Positions 705-11,569 of a DNA stretch of 11,569 nucleotides are shown piece after piece. The notes under the pieces were generated by a model. It was not told the origin of the DNA and did no database searches. It saw only the letters and a list, made by a program, of their open reading frames with translations. The translations under genes and the position numbers were made by a program. The first letter of the stretch is position 1; the number at the start of each line of letters is the position of its first letter. Origin of the DNA: a virus (lineage: Duplodnaviria; Heunggongvirae; Uroviricota; Caudoviricetes); IMG/VR virus record IMGVR_UViG_2671180283_000020; one strand, 5' to 3'.

Positions 705-1709
705 TTAGTCTCCAGGATTTCCGGGGCGGTTCACTACGGGATCTTTGTGAATGTCGATCGGACGTTCACGGACAAGGCCAAAAATAGTCTGGCGGTCGTA
801 GCGAAGGGCATCAGGCTGTTTGCGCATTGATGCCGAGATACGCTTCCAGTCTTCGCGGTCGTTGTCGATAACTTCATTTTTTGCCCAGCGATGGATGCTG
901 CCGTCAATGTTTCCGGCATCCACATCACCAGGCCAGAGAGCGTAGGCCAGTTCGTCATCCAGTGTTTTCCATGTCTGCTTGTATTCGCGATGAATGGCAG
1001 CAATGACCGGGCTGATTTTTCCTGTTGAATTTTCACTGTACTGTTGATTGGCTCTGGCGCGTGCGAGATCAACAACAGACGTGTATTTTCCGGTTTCCTT
1101 GCGTTCACCTTCGCGACGTTTTTTCCAGATGCGCATCTCTGCCTGAATTTCGGGCCATTTGGCACCAGGCTTACATTTATGCTTAACCCACCCGATGGCA
1201 TGCAGCTTAAGCTCCGGATACATGGCGTTAACTTCTGGCATTTTCATCAACGCTTCAACGATATGTCCGTCGAATGTTGCCATGTCTTCCTGCAACAATT
1301 CCTGTGCGCTAATAACCATATCAACGGTGATGTTTTCACATGTGTCGAACTTAACCATGACAGCGTTCTGTACTTCAGGGGCCAGCTTGTCAAAAGTGAC
1401 GTTCATCGGATCGGATTCAGTCTCAACCGGGACAAAGGAAGCAGACTCCTCATCCCAGCGGTTTTCCTGCATATATTCAGCATCCCAGGAATCGAGGGCA
1501 GGGCGGGGTATACCGGGTTTATCCTCGCAGACAAGAAATTTATAAGCGCAGTCCTGAGCAGCCGGATAATGCTCCAGGAATTGCCAGTGAAATTTTGCGC
1601 GGGCGCGACGTTCATCACCGGCTTCAATGGCAGTGGCTACAGCGACGGCACCTTCTTCCTTTATTGCCTGTTCGTCCGGAATGGCGGCGCAAATAAAGAC
1701 TTTACTCAT
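705..1709 (-). pseudogene. Prophage gene in the ydfE position, 3' end disrupted by the IS insertion (native sequence 734..1709; last ~10 codons and the stop come from IS terminal sequence)
   Basis: 334-aa ORF with GAGGT Shine-Dalgarno before the ATG at 1707-1709. The reading frame runs uninterrupted across the IS terminus at 733/734 and stops inside the IS, so the native C-terminus is missing. Synteny downstream of dicB-ydfD suggests the ydfE slot. No family recognised by eye. Confidence 0.6.
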
Positions 1710-2352: not shown

Positions 2353-2405
2353 GGGCGGCAGAGCAGTCACGGAGTAAAACTGATACCGCCAAACGTCACC
2401 AGAAA
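2353..2405 (-). ncRNA. dicF: DicF small RNA (53 nt, ftsZ-targeting sRNA of dicB operons), followed by a T-run at 2348..2352
   Basis: Reverse complement of 2353..2405 is TTTCTGGTGACGTTTGGCGGTATCAGTTTTACTCCGTGACTGCTCTGCCGCCC, matching the DicF sequence as I remember it. It ends in a GC-rich stem plus U-tail and sits upstream of dicB on the same strand, as in Qin. Confidence 0.8.
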
Positions 2406-7022: not shown

Positions 7023-7868
7023 ATGAGGAAAAAATCGTTTGGACGTTGCCCGTTTGATTTCGACGAAGATGTAAAAAAAATAGCCGCGATAAATAAATAT
7101 ATCCATGCGAAATTTGAGAGGCATAAAAATAAAATAGATAACCTAAAGGGGGTGGAACAAAAATTGATGGTTTTACATTACTTTAATGTACTGAATGAAC
7201 TTAGTAATCAGGCTATATTTTCTTTGAGTACCGGAGCCTTTTCAGCATCGGAAGTATTAACTAGAGTTATAATGGAACAGGCTGCCAATCAATTTTATAT
7301 AGCAATTGATGATGGAAAAAATGCACAAGCATTACTCAAGGGTAGTAAGAAATTAGTTCATAGTAATGGGAAACGGTGGCTGGAGTGTTTAAAATCCAAA
7401 GAAATGACTAATCCAGCAGCAGATGAAAGGATTCGTATCGGAAAAGAGCTAACTGATATGTTTAATAGATTGTGGCCAAATACACCTGAATATCCTGGAA
7501 CCAAAAAGCTTTTCGAAGTAATTGGCTGGGAAACACACTATCATGCCTATTACGTCCCTCTTTGTGATTCAATACATACATTCTCTGATGATATGGCAAA
7601 TATAGTATCTCTATATAATGCAATCCAAAGCGATAAAACTACTGCTATCGAACTCACTCTTGCAGTTAAACAAGAAAATAAACGGCTGGCAATTTATAAT
7701 GTCGTAATTGCTATTGGCCTGCGGTGTGAGGCCTTAGTAAATGTATTTAACTCTTTAGGTTATCGAGATATTATAACTGAAATGGCGCCAACAATAGATG
7801 CAGTCAACCAGATTATAATTCGATATGATGATTTCGAACATTCCAGAATTTTTATTGTCAATAATTAA
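7023..7868 (+). CDS. Orphan hypothetical protein (281 aa), AT-rich, predicted largely alpha-helical; candidate defence/abortive-infection cargo gene of unknown family
   Basis: Long ORF in AT-rich DNA with a near-consensus AGGAGG Shine-Dalgarno. No Walker, HNH, HEPN or other motif recognised by eye. Located between the prophage replication module and a decayed integrase plus the Septu operon. Confidence 0.75.
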   Translation: MRKKSFGRCPFDFDEDVKKIAAINKYIHAKFERHKNKIDNLKGVEQKLMVLHYFNVLNELSNQAIFSLSTGAFSASEVLTRVIMEQAANQFYIAIDDGKNAQALLKGSKKLVHSNGKRWLECLKSKEMTNPAADERIRIGKELTDMFNRLWPNTPEYPGTKKLFEVIGWETHYHAYYVPLCDSIHTFSDDMANIVSLYNAIQSDKTTAIELTLAVKQENKRLAIYNVVIAIGLRCEALVNVFNSLGYRDIITEMAPTIDAVNQIIIRYDDFEHSRIFIVNN

Positions 7869-7936
7869 TTGGCAGAATTCGTACATGCACAACAACTAGT
7901 TATAGTTGACCTATTTCGCTCTTGAGAGACAACCAT

Positions 7937-7969
7937 ACTCAAATCTTCCACATTGCAGGAGATTTGAGT
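7937..7969 (+). other. Perfect 10-bp inverted repeat ACTCAAATCT / AGATTTGAGT with a 13-nt loop, immediately upstream of the integrase-remnant ATG
   Basis: Read directly from sequence. The loop/right arm contains GGAG (7957..7960), the Shine-Dalgarno for the ATG at 7970. No U-tract follows, so not a classical terminator. Confidence 0.5.
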
Positions 7970-8490
7970 ATGAATACGTCACCGAGGAACAAAGACAGTA
8001 TCATAGGCCCAAAAAGACCACTTCAGATATCTCATATCTGGGGGCTCCAAATCCGGCTTGAACTGGAAGGTAAAACGCGTGATTTAGCTCGGTTTCAAGC
8101 AGAGCTACGGTGCTGCAACTGAAAAACTGGCAGTCCTATCCAATTTGAGATAACCAAAGGGACAAGAGAAGCTGTTTCTGCATTGATAAAGCTTGGCAAT
8201 TTACGCAGTAAAGACTACTTGTTCCGATCTCGGGTCGGTACTAACCAACACATATCAATCCTGCAATATAACCGAATCTTTCATAGGGGGGAGAAAAGCT
8301 TGGTCTCGAAGATTCGCTTTACAGCACACATTCCATGAGAAGAACAAAACCTTGCCTTGTCTGCAAGAAAACTAAGAATCTCCGGGTGATCCAACTTCCG
8401 TTGGGCCATAAGAAAACGGAAAGCACAGTTCGTTATCTGGGTATAGAAGTTGATGATGCATTAGAGATCTCTGAATCGATCGAAGTCTAA
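7970..8490 (+). pseudogene. Decayed small tyrosine recombinase (integrase catalytic-domain family): in-frame TGA at 8120..8122 and a frame change near 8336
   Basis: Three consecutive segments translate to MNTSPRNKDSIIGPKRPLQISHIWGLQIRLELEGKTRDLARFQAELRCCN* / KTGSPIQFEITKGTREAVSALIKLGNLRSKDYLFRSRVGTNQHISILQYNRIFHRGEKSLVSKIRFTAHIP* / RRTKPCLVCKKTKNLRVIQLPLGHKKTESTVRYLGIEVDDALEISESIEV*. These carry recombinase hallmarks (TRDLA Arg, H-x-x-RRTK, LGH, VRY tyrosine). The last two segments lack any Met, so they are absent from the ORF track. Confidence 0.65.
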
Positions 8491-8902
8491 AGCTGTCAGG
8501 GCTGCAGCAGCAGCCCTGTGCCAAGAGCGTACCAATATATGTCTCAAAAAATTGGGCACAGGTCAATATCAATACCAACAACTCTGATTGTGCTCATGTG
8601 ATTTACTCCTGTAGAAAACGCAGACAGTAAAAATATTTCACTGGCTGCTTCAGACAGGGCGTCCATCATATCATTACATAACAATAGCGGGGCACGATAT
8701 CTAGACATGCAGCAACGATGGACATAGAATGAGTACAATCAAAAGCATGTTTAACTACTTTAATTTAAAAATCTTAGAATCTTAGGTGTAGAGTTCAATA
8801 CTTAGTTACATACCCTTTTGAAAGCATCACAAATCATAACTATGAGCCTGTTAAAGGCATAGGTATTCTTAATTAAGAGCATTTTAATGAGAGAAAAATA
8901 AA

Positions 8903-10276
8903 ATGAAAAGACTATATTATACCCATCATGATAGTCGAACCTTAAAACTTGCTATAGAAGGTGATGTTTCTGATAATGCGAATATTTTTACAGTAATTGT
9001 AGGTAAAAATGGCGTTGGAAAAAGCAGATTGTTATCTCAGATTGCTAAAGACTGTATTCAAGATGTTCATTTCTTGAAAACTTTTAATCCATTATTTGAC
9101 AGAGAAATAACACCAAAGTTAATTGCCGTATCTACCAGCCCATTCGATAAATTCCCTCCAGGGCGTAGGTCATTAAATCACCAAAGGAAAGAAAATAATT
9201 ATCGCTATGTGGGTATGCGTGGAGAAGGCCCCTTCGGCGTATCAAATGCCGTATCCCTTTTATCTTCAGCAGCGAGAGGTTGGCTAGAGAAACTTGCTTA
9301 TTCAGAAAATCCTGCAAATTTACTCGATGTTTTTCATTCTATTGATTTTGAGCCCCATATAGAGTTTGTATTTAAACCAACTTACAACGGACCGGACACT
9401 CCTGACTATAACTTCATTGGTGTATATTCAGATGAGATATTAACGGAAGTTAAGGAGTTATATTTAAAATACAATATAAAAATTGACAGGAAGAATATTG
9501 AGAGTCTCTTAAAGTTAAACTCCGAATCACGTCATGATATTTACGAAGCACTGGTTGAAATTAATCGATTTGAACCTGAACGTAGGGCTGTAACCTTGTC
9601 AGTCGATTTTACCAATGGTGAAACATTGGTTGGCTCGACTTATGCGAATAATTATTTTTCTAGATCAATTCTTAAACTTATGAACGCTGGCTTCATGAGA
9701 TTGATGGATATGCGACTCATAAAAAAAAGCTATGGTCCCATGTCACTTAAACGTGCGAGCTCGGGAGAACAATGTTTATTAGTGATGTTGCTTGGAATTG
9801 CAGGGCATATAACTGATGGTTCTATAATATTAATTGATGAACCGGAAATAAGCTTGCATCCTCGATGGCAGGAAGAGTTTATCATTATGTTAACAAAAGC
9901 ATTTTTAACTTACTCAGGTTGTCAATTCATAATTGCAACTCATTCACCACAAATAATATCCAATTTGCCGAATAAAGGTTGTTATATAACATCTTTGTCG
10001 AAAAGTTATCTTTATAAAGCAAAATACTTTAGCAACCGGTCTGCAGACTATCAACTTGCGGAACTATTTGATGCCCCTGGCATTATGAATGAATACATTG
10101 CCAGGTTAGCTTTCAATTTACTTTCAAAAGTTAAGACTGCTAAGTTAGTAACAGATGATAATTGGCGTGAATTAAAACAACTCCAACTTCTCCTTGAAAA
10201 CGTTAATAGTAATGACCCTATTAATGAACTCGTAAATTCCGTATCTCAGGTGTGTGAAATTTATGCCAAAAATTAA
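8903..10276 (+). CDS. ptuA: Septu-like PtuA: ABC/OLD-type (AAA_15/AAA_21-like) ATPase, 457 aa
   Basis: Walker A VIVGKNGVGKSRLL near the N-terminus, ABC-signature-like SSGEQ, Walker B IILIDEPEISLHP, H-loop IIATHSP. AT-rich gene that overlaps the downstream HNH gene. Confidence 0.8.
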   Translation: MKRLYYTHHDSRTLKLAIEGDVSDNANIFTVIVGKNGVGKSRLLSQIAKDCIQDVHFLKTFNPLFDREITPKLIAVSTSPFDKFPPGRRSLNHQRKENNYRYVGMRGEGPFGVSNAVSLLSSAARGWLEKLAYSENPANLLDVFHSIDFEPHIEFVFKPTYNGPDTPDYNFIGVYSDEILTEVKELYLKYNIKIDRKNIESLLKLNSESRHDIYEALVEINRFEPERRAVTLSVDFTNGETLVGSTYANNYFSRSILKLMNAGFMRLMDMRLIKKSYGPMSLKRASSGEQCLLVMLLGIAGHITDGSIILIDEPEISLHPRWQEEFIIMLTKAFLTYSGCQFIIATHSPQIISNLPNKGCYITSLSKSYLYKAKYFSNRSADYQLAELFDAPGIMNEYIARLAFNLLSKVKTAKLVTDDNWRELKQLQLLLENVNSNDPINELVNSVSQVCEIYAKN

Positions 10277-10898
10277 AAATCCAATTAGATTCAGCGCAGA
10301 GTCATTAGATATTATTGAGAAAAAATTGTCTTCTCCAGATTTTAAGCATACCAACTGGGGAGATGATGATTTGCAAGTTCTCCGTGCAGAAATTAGAAAT
10401 CATTACAGAGAAGAACAAAAGCTAGAATGTGTATATTGTCATGAGCCTATTGGGGTAAGAGCTGCACAAGCTGCTCCTATAGAGCATATTGTGCCAAAAT
10501 CTCAATATCTATGTTTTATTTTTGAACCTAAGAATCTATGTGTAGTATGTCCTGACTGCAATGAATTCAAAGGTAAAAATGAAGTGTTATTTGAACCCGT
10601 AATAAATGGGGGGCGGCGCAAAAACTATCCAACTGCATCTGCATCATTTCGCATCGTTCATCCACATATAGATGATTATGAGATGCATATTATAAAAGCA
10701 AATCGTGTTTATGTGGACAAAACACCTAAAGGGCACTATACCATTGGAATATGTAAACTAAATAGATTTTTTCATTATTTTGGGATGTGTGATGAATTTG
10801 TTAATGATGCAAAAATTGCTGAGGCAAATGAAAATTTTTTCAAAAAAGGTAGTATTACTACTAATGAATTATTGGATGATGACATTCATTTGATTTAA
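10263..10898 (+). CDS. ptuB: Septu-like PtuB: HNH endonuclease, 211 aa from the ATG at 10263 (214 aa if the GTG at 10254 is used)
   Basis: HNH-type motif CVYCHEP...APIEHIVPKSQ...CVVCPDCNEFKGKN...VHPHID (Cys pairs plus His/Asn/His). Overlaps the ptuA 3' end by 14-23 nt, implying one operon. Confidence 0.8.
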   Translation: MPKIKNPIRFSAESLDIIEKKLSSPDFKHTNWGDDDLQVLRAEIRNHYREEQKLECVYCHEPIGVRAAQAAPIEHIVPKSQYLCFIFEPKNLCVVCPDCNEFKGKNEVLFEPVINGGRRKNYPTASASFRIVHPHIDDYEMHIIKANRVYVDKTPKGHYTIGICKLNRFFHYFGMCDEFVNDAKIAEANENFFKKGSITTNELLDDDIHLI

Positions 10899-11007
10899 CT
10901 ATGAATTATTATATTGTAAAGTAATCAGGTAAGATATGTTAGACAGTGAGACTATTGCCTTACAGAATTCATTATTCTTATGGATCGCCTTTCTGACTGA
11001 TTTCATA

Positions 11008-11036
11008 TTGGCGGGGTAACGGGAGTTAAGTAGAAT
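11008..11036 (+). promoter_or_regulatory. Candidate hok mRNA promoter (-35 TTGGCG 11008..11013, 17-bp spacer, -10 TAGAAT 11031..11036)
   Basis: Hexamers read directly. The downstream leader (GCTTGAGGCTATCTGTCTCA...GGCAGATAGAGAAAAGCCCC) resembles the 5' region of plasmid R1 hok mRNA as I recall it. Confidence 0.45.
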
Positions 11037-11094
11037 GGCTGCGGGTGCTTGAGGCTATCTGTCTCAGGCATGAACACCAAAGGCAGATAGAGAA

Positions 11095-11165
11095 AAGCCC
11101 CAGTTAACATTACGCGTCCTGCAAGACGCTTAACATTAATCTGAGGCCAATTTCATGCTAGACAC
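11095..11165 (-). ncRNA. sok: Putative Sok-like antisense RNA (boundaries approximate)
   Basis: Inferred from the minus-strand promoter at 11170..11198 and from the hok/sok paradigm, where Sok is antisense to the mok translation-initiation region. Neither end is clearly defined by a terminator in the sequence. Confidence 0.3.
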
Positions 11166-11169
11166 ATGT

Positions 11170-11198
11170 AGGTTAGCCTCTTACGTGCCGGAAGGCAA
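11170..11198 (-). promoter_or_regulatory. Candidate sok promoter on the minus strand (-35 TTGCCT, 17-bp spacer, -10 TAACCT)
   Basis: Reverse complement of 11193..11198 is TTGCCT and of 11170..11175 is TAACCT. It sits between the upstream ATG at 11155 and the hok ATG, the arrangement I recall for the R1 sok promoter (TTGCGC / TATCCT). Confidence 0.45.
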
Positions 11199-11211
11199 GG
11201 AGAAGCAGGCT

Positions 11212-11367
11212 ATGAAGCAGCAAAAGGCGATGTTAATCGCCCTGATCGTCATCTGTTTAACCGTCATAGTGACGACACTGGTAACGAGGAAAGACCTCTG
11301 CGAGGTACGAATCCGAACCGGCCAGACGGAGGTCGCTGTCTTCACAGCTTACGAACCTGAGGAGTAA
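11212..11367 (+). CDS. hokD: Hok/Gef-family type I toxin (51 aa), HokD/RelF-like
   Basis: MKQQKAMLIALIVICLTVIVTTLVTRKDLCEVRIRTGQTEVAVFTAYEPEE with AAGGAG Shine-Dalgarno 9 nt upstream. Near-identical to recalled HokD (RelF). The track ORF 11155..11367 is an in-frame upstream extension from the mok-equivalent ATG. Confidence 0.85.
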   Translation: MKQQKAMLIALIVICLTVIVTTLVTRKDLCEVRIRTGQTEVAVFTAYEPEE

Positions 11368-11435
11368 GAGACCCGGCGAGGGAGAAATCCCTCGCCACCT
11401 CTGATGTGGCAGGCATCCTCAACGCACCCGCACTT

Positions 11436-11465
11436 AACCCGCTTCGGCGGGTTTTTGTTTTTATT
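11436..11465 (+). terminator. Rho-independent terminator at the hok mRNA 3' end
   Basis: AACCCGC-TTCG-GCGGGTT stem-loop followed by TTTGTTTTTATTTT. A further hairpin GGCGAGGG-agaaat-CCCTCGCC lies at 11375..11396. Confidence 0.6.
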
Positions 11466-11569
11466 TTCAACGCGTTTGAAGTTCTGGACGGCGCCGGAAT
11501 AGAATCAAAAATACTTAAGTAGCGCGCAGGGATAAGAGGGATGGTCCCTTAAAGGGGAGAGCTAATTAT

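Follow-up and report, generated by a model that had tools for sequence, protein, structure and literature searches.

A full-length hokD-type hok/mok/sok module, most likely R1-like in its working, in a Qin/Rac-like prophage of Escherichia coli

The window, the whole stretch of DNA analysed here (11,569 nucleotides), holds at positions 11008–11465 what an initial annotation, made from the letters alone, called an apparently complete hok/sok-type type I toxin–antitoxin locus. This raises three questions: whether the locus is complete, whether it would work as the hok/mok/sok system of plasmid R1 does, and what it might do for the element that carries it. We hold with high confidence that the region carries a complete, full-length hok/mok/sok type I toxin–antitoxin module of the hokD type, in a Qin/Rac-like lambdoid prophage of E. 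coli, and that the module is most likely R1-like in its working. The module is already known and very common, and its identification in the initial annotation was correct.

Prophage setting and toxin gene

The window (11.6 kb) belongs to a lambdoid E. coli prophage that resembles Qin and Rac. Gene order was taken from a complete genome with an exact match to the last 970 bases of the window. It runs from an exonuclease gene through dicB and the DicF sRNA to a DicA/Cro-type immunity region and ydaT, continues with replication genes (a DnaT-like gene and P), a DUF5677 gene and an integrase remnant, and ends with an AAA ATPase and HNH nuclease pair, hokD, rem, rusA and Q; from cro through Q, every gene shares its strand with hok. 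Other Rfam matches in the window are to DicF and to an IS3-type frameshift pseudoknot. The ATPase/HNH pair, the "island" beside which the locus had first been placed, is a Septu system (PADLOC: PtuA E = 1e-165, PtuB E = 1e-83). The module is carried as cargo in the early-right prophage region, between the Septu pair (ptuA-ptuB) and rem; in the genome locus that is 100% identical, as in K-12, rem lies 3' of hokD. At least 12 complete E. coli genomes contain a perfect match to the 580-nt region that holds the module.

The toxin gene, named HokD by PGAP, bears out the earlier claim of an intact 51-residue Hok: the open reading frame at 11212–11367 matches Pfam HOK_GEF (PF01848) with 82.7 bits (E = 1.3e-23; cut-off 22). 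The protein is 98% identical to HokD and 90% identical to HokW, and carries A22T relative to K-12 HokD, the aligned residue in R1 Hok being Thr. Exact copies occur on 590 public contigs for the 51-residue protein and on 272 for a 70-residue form that begins at the upstream mok start codon, under the names HokD or Hok family toxin.

Chance resemblance was rejected because the region matches many genomes with 100% identity and scores 117 bits with Rfam. Two small minus-strand open reading frames, 10899–11006 and 11003–11110, were also rejected as genes; they overlap the hok promoter and leader and are otherwise unsupported. Both are annotated as hypothetical proteins in phage HannyBb.

RNA elements, predicted folds and proposed mechanism

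The features of the locus, in order of position, are as follows.

11008..11036, + strand: promoter of the hok/mok mRNA, TTGGCG (11008–11013), 17-nt spacer, TAGAAT (11031–11036), from a consensus scan
11043..11054, + strand: tac element GGGUGCUUGAGG, predicted to begin the hok mRNA, with its first base at position 1 of the Rfam model; pairs with fbi or ucb, depending on the fold
11055..11090, + strand: 5' hairpin CUAUCUGUCU ... AGGCAGAUAG, directly after tac and present in both folds
11087..11163, − strand: predicted Sok antisense RNA, ~77 nt, with ends placed by homology to the annotated ends of K-12 sokC
11095..11103, + strand: ucb, the predicted anti-Shine-Dalgarno box for mok, AAGCCCCAG, from the folds and RNAalifold
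11143..11146, + strand: mok Shine-Dalgarno sequence GAGG, 8 nt before the mok ATG, read from the sequence
11143..11180, + strand: predicted Sok-target hairpin of the processed mRNA, with the mok Shine-Dalgarno sequence paired to dcb GGUUAGCCUC (11171–11180)
11155..11367, + strand: mok reading frame, ATG at 11155–11157, 70 codons, in frame with hok, from the list of open reading frames
11170..11198, − strand: sok promoter, −35 TTGCCT (11198..11193), 17-nt spacer, −10 TAACCT (11175..11170), read from the sequence
11197..11202, + strand: hok Shine-Dalgarno sequence AAGGAG, read from the sequence; overlaps the sok −35 on the opposite strand
11212..11367, + strand: hok toxin gene, 51 residues, from the list of open reading frames and Pfam HOK_GEF
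11375..11396, + strand: 3'-UTR hairpin GGCGAGGGA ... UCCCUCGCC, present in both folds
11417..11429, + strand: fbi element CCUCAACGCACCC, a complement of tac apart from a single bulged C
11436..11463, + strand: intrinsic terminator of the hok mRNA, a 7-bp stem (11436–11453) with 5 G-C pairs and a T run, from a terminator scan

The locus is complete by each sequence criterion applied, and all of the elements listed in the initial annotation were found at the positions given there, through Rfam, Pfam, scans and the sequence itself. The proposed hok promoter, TTGGCG-17-TAGAAT, was located by a consensus scan of a 720-nt region that returned four promoter-like sites against 0.9 expected, and the 3' terminator, stem and T run alike, was recovered by the terminator scan. 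The likening of the leader to that of R1 is upheld by a full-length match to Rfam RF01794 (sok/hok-leader) at 11043–11217 on the + strand, with 117.1 bits (E = 9.6e-27; gathering score 59). Because this match lies on the hok-sense strand, the model describes the leader of the hok mRNA, with the Sok RNA antisense within it. The hok mRNA is predicted to start at G11043, position 1 of that model.

For comparison across the family, one genome per species was scanned, which gave 80 Hok loci; 60 distinct loci were compared, and 58 whole mRNAs were aligned. The whole leader is carried by 71 of the 80 loci, which come from different species. In nearly all of the 58 aligned loci, a TAnAAT-type −10 lies 6–7 nt ahead of the first tac base, and the mok Shine-Dalgarno sequence GAGG is conserved in almost all; CAAGGAGAAG, containing the hok Shine-Dalgarno sequence, is present in 38 of the 58. 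Both flanking hairpins covary in the RNAalifold consensus: at columns 16/65 the 5' hairpin shows an AU/UA swap (AU 27, UA 22, GU 7), and at columns 392/406 the 3'-UTR hairpin has AU 28, GC 25 and CG 3. By analogy with R1 (PMC9841398), the 3'-UTR hairpin is likely to be the 3' end structure of the processed mRNA.

In the R1 model, the full-length mRNA is inert, its 5' tac element being paired with the 3' fbi element and its mok Shine-Dalgarno sequence held by ucb; in the 3'-processed mRNA, tac pairs with ucb, and the hairpin of mok Shine-Dalgarno sequence and dcb is accessible to ribosomes and to Sok (PMC9841398). The predicted folds of the window locus reproduce both of these states. For the full-length transcript (11043–11460), the minimum-energy structure closes tac (11043–11054) onto fbi (11417–11429), with z = −7.1, and pairs the ucb segment GCCCCAG with the mok Shine-Dalgarno region CUGAGGC. 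For a trimmed transcript (11043–11412) without fbi and the terminator, the predicted structure pairs tac (GGG.GCUU) with ucb (AAGCCCC), and the hairpin of mok Shine-Dalgarno sequence and dcb is seen in this 3'-truncated fold only. The loop of that hairpin carries CUAG (11158–11161), a YUNR-type motif. A role for the YUNR U-turn in R1 was reportedly described by Franch et al. in 1999.

When RNAalifold was applied to the whole-mRNA alignment of 58 sequences, its consensus structure lacked the tac/fbi helix and contained instead the competing, mutually exclusive tac/ucb helix, which is found in 57–58 of the 58 loci. The tac/fbi pairing was therefore addressed through explicit tests, namely the scoring of named pairs with slid controls and the comparison of per-locus duplex energies with shuffles. 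In the energy test, the best complement to the first 12 nt was sought inside the 3' UTR of the 60 distinct loci and set against shuffled UTRs. The window locus gives a 12-bp duplex with one bulge at −21.1 kcal/mol, compared with −12.7 kcal/mol for shuffled 3' UTRs, none of 200 shuffles being as good. In most of the 60 loci, the tac complement lies 45–58 nt past the stop codon and is far stabler than in shuffled UTRs; the loci that lack a good tac/fbi duplex have been disrupted on their downstream side, one example being hokC of the K-12 type, with its IS186. In the alignment, the 6-bp core helix is 92% paired, and the only pair in it that varies, at columns 4/472, is fully compensatory (CG 30, UA 23, UG 4 and unpaired 0 among the 58 loci). 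Sliding the 3' partner by 1–3 columns lowers overall tac/fbi pairing from 83% to 40–52%. The distal half (columns 7–13 with 449–454) is 74% paired in the family-wide alignment, with subfamilies out of register there, so that the case for tac/fbi rests on the 6-bp core. Disruption of the leader elements had been named from the outset as a point on which the identification could fail; by the Rfam match, the folds and the 58-locus alignment, tac/fbi and the mok Shine-Dalgarno sequence are intact.

Turning to the antisense RNA, the predicted Sok is complementary to the region in which mok translation begins. It starts with 11–15 unpaired nucleotides at the 5' end, continues with a long stem-loop (~11148..11097) and finishes in a U-rich tail. 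Its predicted fold has an energy of −30.5 kcal/mol (z = −5.25), and none of 200 shuffles was as stable. The stem is conserved and contains two compensatory pairs, 25/75 (GC 22, AU 18) and 34/65 (AU 20, GC 18). In addition, a U-G pair at 23/77 occurs in 41 of 43 sequences, and its equivalent on the mRNA strand would be an A.C mismatch; this strand-specific pair indicates selection on the antisense RNA itself.

The convergent minus-strand promoter described earlier, TTGCCT-17-TAACCT, is present at 11198..11170, and a transcription start for sok is predicted at ~11163. This promoter was absent from the stricter list of the consensus scan; its −10, TAACCT, is weak, with too few consensus positions matched. 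All 58 homologous loci have a 17-nt spacer here, 32 of them have the −35 TTGCCT, and both hexamers recur unchanged in the sokW promoter of Sp5 (probe YO-597, PMC8621323), in which a −10 mutation unmasked HokW toxicity (PMC8621323). We accept the sok promoter because its position is conserved and its hexamers are those of the validated sokW promoter, and not for its closeness to the consensus.

Together, these elements form a module whose molecular mechanism is very probably that of R1; we infer where its transcripts end, that the mRNA is processed from the 3' side, that RNase III acts on the duplex and that Hok is toxic. The sigma-70 promoter at 11008–11036 would direct synthesis of a ~420-nt mRNA from G11043. 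In this full-length mRNA, tac would be paired with fbi and the mok Shine-Dalgarno sequence held by ucb, allowing neither translation nor Sok binding. Slow 3' trimming would then remove fbi, freeing tac to pair with ucb, and the mok Shine-Dalgarno sequence would pass into the dcb hairpin, the loop of which would serve as the entry site for Sok. Sok itself would be an unstable antisense RNA of ~77 nt transcribed from the convergent promoter at 11198..11170, and as long as it was present the duplex would be destroyed; for hokW-sokW, a partial dependence on RNase III has been demonstrated (PMC8621323). Once Sok was gone, ribosomes could read mok through the hok start region, so that the 51-residue Hok would be made and the inner membrane damaged. 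With mok in frame, as in hokC and hokW, translation of mok would also yield a 70-residue extended Hok.

The mok frame and the frequency of the full-length locus

The ATG at 11155 does occupy the mok position, as first noted: GAGG lies 8 nt ahead of it, and a 70-codon reading frame is open from there through hok. In this arrangement, mok is a 19-codon N-terminal extension of hok, with its ATG 57 nt upstream of the hok ATG. The initial annotation had called the in-frame position unusual. Contrary to that claim, an in-frame mok at −57 is the commoner arrangement, found in 34 of the 60 distinct loci, with 19 out of frame at −58 (the R1 type) and seven without mok. In K-12, mokC (16751–16960) and hokC (16751–16903) share a stop codon and differ in length by exactly 57 nt, and mokW of Sp5 is likewise a 70-codon frame in phase with hokW. 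A hokD variant with a 1-nt insertion, in which mok is out of frame and Hok is kept, occurs in Rac 442/2, in P1-like plasmids and in loci L020–L022. Since these very close relatives differ in mok frame and have the same Hok, Shine-Dalgarno and RNA elements, the frame is apparently unconstrained. The frame of mok relative to hok is not a defining feature of the family; for annotators, an in-frame mok is the commoner arrangement and no oddity.

The open frame does raise an alternative, that the 70-residue Mok–Hok fusion is the real product and that the locus follows a distinct variant mechanism, in which a single long toxin is made without translational coupling. The frame 11155–11367 has its own Shine-Dalgarno sequence and includes the whole of Hok, and many annotators name the 70-residue protein a Hok family toxin or a MokW-like host killing protein. 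However, every subfamily strictly conserves the hok Shine-Dalgarno sequence (AAGGAG) and ATG, and the frame-breaking insertion in the close relatives listed above, which leaves Hok in place, means that the 19-codon extension is not constrained as protein. HokW made from its own ATG is toxic (PMC8621323), and in R1 translation of mok as far as the hok Shine-Dalgarno sequence suffices (PMC9841398). We therefore consider a fusion toxin highly improbable and retain the R1-type reading, in which mok translation serves expression of the 51-residue Hok.

The intactness of the copy had also been thought notable, on the view that many chromosomal hok loci are decayed; the genome counts do not sustain this. 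Of 5426 complete E. coli genomes, 4251 contain the promoter and leader (11008–11211) at a coverage of at least 80%, in a median of two places per genome and in up to nine; the whole 580-nt region occurs in 2952 genomes. According to a survey preprint, almost 80% of Enterobacteriaceae genomes contain Hok, which is enriched in prophages (bioRxiv 10.1101/2025.08.07.668861). What is common is the full-length locus, complete with sok and mok; the truncated K-12 hokD is the exception, a case from one laboratory strain. In thousands of genomes, the promoter, leader and sok region carry no RefSeq annotation. The finding is thus of modest use, as a corrected picture for annotators; as a discovery it matters little, because this is the best-studied type I family, PGAP already names the toxin, the protein is on hundreds of contigs, and there is already a characterised prophage copy that is nearly identical.

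Biological role and comparison with known systems

By analogy with the 92%-identical hokW-sokW, the role of the module is most likely one that serves the prophage, as an aid to lysis on induction and/or a penalty for prophage loss. Candidate roles considered beside this were prophage retention by post-segregational killing, abortive infection and no physiological role at all. In the hokW-sokW system, HokW is toxic and sokW, expressed from its own promoter, neutralises that toxicity, making it a functional type I system (PMC8621323). Upon induction by mitomycin C or heat, sokW RNA is lost and, in a step that depends on RecA, the inner membrane acquires HokW about an hour ahead of the endolysin (PMC8621323). 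Deletion of hokW-sokW delays growth arrest and halves phage release (PMC8621323). hokW occupies a different, early-left phage region, and its role may not transfer to the window copy.

The locus might instead be intact in sequence and physiologically inert, carried with the prophage, transcribed, fully repressed and never activated, a state that has been proposed for chromosomal hok loci. Consistent with this, deletion of hokW-sokW had no effect on growth in the absence of induction (PMC8621323), and native chromosomal hokA, hokB and hokC are reported to have given neither post-segregational killing nor a rifampicin response (cited in bioRxiv 10.1101/2025.08.07.668861). The latter report means that an intact sequence is no proof of R1-like physiology. 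Nevertheless, the regulatory elements are all kept across genera, with compensatory changes, which argues for ongoing selection on regulated expression. Moreover, prophage induction activates hokW-sokW and its presence doubles phage release (PMC8621323), and a single-copy chromosomal R1 hok is lethal without Sok (PMC9841398). We regard inertness as unlikely, and a prophage-serving role as the better account.

Equally, the neighbouring genes suggest that the main role could be anti-phage abortive infection within the adjacent Septu defence island, and not prophage lysis or maintenance. The locus lies directly after ptuA/ptuB, the pair with the PADLOC E values given above, and R1 hok/sok on a high-copy plasmid is cited as having lowered T4 plating (cited in PMC8621323). 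Against this, the survey reports that hok is not enriched near defence systems (bioRxiv 10.1101/2025.08.07.668861), and the left neighbour varies among prophages (relBE, paa/adfO, a methyltransferase or hypothetical genes) at a constant hok–rem junction, so that the Septu link looks incidental. PADLOC assigned the 70-residue protein to no family; we read this as the lack of a model in the PADLOC library and as no argument against a defence role. On balance, abortive infection as the main role appears quite unlikely, and we continue to favour a function in the service of the prophage.

How such a function could be triggered is suggested by the orientation of the neighbouring genes. The gene upstream of hok is co-directional in six of six annotated prophage contexts (the window locus, hokW, K-12 hokD, Rac 442/2, HannyBb and PPompW), six contexts that are not independent of one another, and a terminator scan predicted no terminator between ptuB and the hok promoter. 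Possibly, prophage hok/sok acts as an induction-sensing lysis timer that works through transcriptional interference and not through gene loss; we offer this tentatively and think it doubtful. Read-through from induced early promoters would run head-on into the sok promoter and silence sok. The same read-through would give 5'-extended hok transcripts whose foreign 5' end would be unable to form the tac/fbi lock. If true, such interference could account for the unexplained RecA-dependent loss of sokW RNA on induction.

Among known systems, hokD (relF) of the K-12 Qin prophage occupies the orthologous position, adjoining rem in a Qin-type prophage, and is 99.2% identical to window positions 11198–11569 at the nucleotide level (3 mismatches in 372 nt). 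It differs in that it retains just the hok Shine-Dalgarno sequence, coding sequence, fbi and terminator; relBE replaces the promoter, tac, ucb, the mok start, and the sok gene and promoter, all of which the window locus has. Phage HannyBb is 98% identical over 10971–11569.

The hokW-sokW (mokW) locus of Sakai prophage 5 (VT2-Sakai) is 91.9% identical over 11008–11439 and has the same 18-nt extended Sok hairpin, an in-frame 70-codon mok and a 51-residue Hok. However, it lies in the early-left phage region after ea22-like and DUF551 genes, whereas the window copy adjoins rem; the C-terminus of HokW reads VDYESEK against TAYEPEE in the window Hok, and the terminator and downstream sequence are different. 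K-12 hokC/mokC/sokC (gef) has the same order of elements, an in-frame mok at 57 nt and an identical tac (GGGUGCUUGAGG), with a Hok that is 80% identical and ~76% nucleotide identity overall. In contrast to the window locus, K-12 SokC is 59 nt long and lacks the 18-nt hairpin extension, and fbi has been lost to the downstream IS186 (locus L027).

Finally, the alignment to R1 hok/sok and E. coli hokD loci that had been proposed as a check places the elements of the window locus one by one beside those of an R1-type plasmid locus. Plasmid R1 hok/mok/sok (parB) shares the promoter, tac, ucb, mok Shine-Dalgarno sequence, dcb, hok Shine-Dalgarno sequence, fbi and terminator at similar spacing, together with a sok promoter with a 17-nt spacer, and the two predicted folds match the R1 model. 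The two systems differ in that the R1 Hok is 45% identical, the R1 mok is out of frame, 58 nt upstream, and tac/fbi is GGCGC/GCGCC in R1 against GGGUGC/GCACCC in the window locus. In R1, the 5' hairpin is longer and the Sok hairpin shorter, and R1 hok/sok is a plasmid-borne system for which post-segregational killing is proven.

Leader and antisense RNA of the hok locus

In the hok locus, the Rfam model RF01794 ("sok antitoxin") matches the hok-sense strand (11043–11217, plus strand); the match begins at the 5' end of the mRNA and reaches the hok start codon. Because the match runs along this strand, what RF01794 describes is the leader of hok, not the antisense Sok RNA, and using it to assign a strand gives a misleading answer. 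In the sampled genomes, RefSeq has no annotation across the promoter, the leader or the sok region.

In hokD- and hokW-type loci, the tip of the Sok hairpin is enlarged by an additional palindrome of approximately 18 nt (ACGCGUCCUGCAAGACGC; within 11101–11128, plus strand, in the window), an insert absent from hokC-, Photorhabdus- and R1-type loci. This insert accounts for the predicted Sok length of approximately 77 nt in the window, compared with 59 nt for K-12 SokC.

A conserved hairpin in the hok coding sequence and flanking features

Within the hok coding sequence, the motif UUACGAA is unchanged in all 58 aligned hok loci (window site 11348–11365, plus strand). This motif lies in a small hairpin, in its loop, and the pairs that close the hairpin covary across the alignment: pair 348/365 is CG in 23 loci, UG in 19 and UA in 16, while pair 349/364 is GC in 41 and AU in 11. 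The loop contains the Tyr47 codon:

11350–11352, plus strand: Tyr47 codon UAC, followed by G11353, in the hok coding sequence

This Tyr47 site looks like the one in hokB at which A-to-I editing by TadA has been reported.

Separately, six near-identical E. coli-type hok loci from the one-genome-per-species scan (L015, L030, L037 and L070–L072) occur under non-enterobacterial contig labels, namely Veillonella, Acinetobacter, Xanthomonas, Ferruginibacter, Streptomyces and Oscillibacter. These are mainly short contigs or metagenome-assembled genomes, and most likely reflect contamination or mis-binning of DNA from enterobacteria or plasmids rather than a true host range.

Three further features flank or overlap the hok locus; the rem gene itself starts past the window end.

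11476–11505, plus strand: promoter-like site (TTGAAG, 18 nt, TAGAAT) directly past the hok terminator and before rem
10899–11006, minus strand: 35-codon ORF overlapping the hok promoter/leader region
11003–11110, minus strand: 35-codon ORF overlapping the same region

Both minus-strand ORFs have hypothetical-protein counterparts in phage HannyBb, and are probably spurious gene calls.

The Septu island and the left end of the window

The island adjoining hok (8903–10898, plus strand) is a Septu anti-phage system, assigned from PADLOC matches, and follows two further features.

7023–7868, plus strand: DUF5677 protein gene (Pfam E = 3e-9)
~7920–8580: frameshifted tyrosine recombinase fragment (RefSeq annotation, read from a genome exactly matching the last 970 bases of the window)
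8903–10276, plus strand: ptuA ORF (PtuA, E = 1.2e-165)
10254–10898, plus strand: ptuB ORF, overlapping ptuA (PtuB, HNH nuclease, E = 1.1e-83)

The position of the recombinase fragment after the DUF5677 gene suggests that the Septu/DUF5677 block entered the prophage as small integrative cargo. The cargo combination seen here is uncommon, since among 5426 complete E. coli genomes just 15 match at least 80% of the whole window.

Three features lie at the left end.

1–733: IS3-family element adjoining the exonuclease gene (ALIL frameshift pseudoknot at 282–398, 121 bits)
705–1709, minus strand: prophage exonuclease gene
2353–2404, minus strand: DicF sRNA gene (full-length Rfam match, 76.7 bits)

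The exonuclease gene spans 334 codons, whereas a related prophage has a version of 823 codons (2472 nt), and it appears to have been truncated by the IS3-family element; most genome matches to the window start at 734–738. DicF lies in the dicB operon in this prophage, as it does in K-12 Qin.
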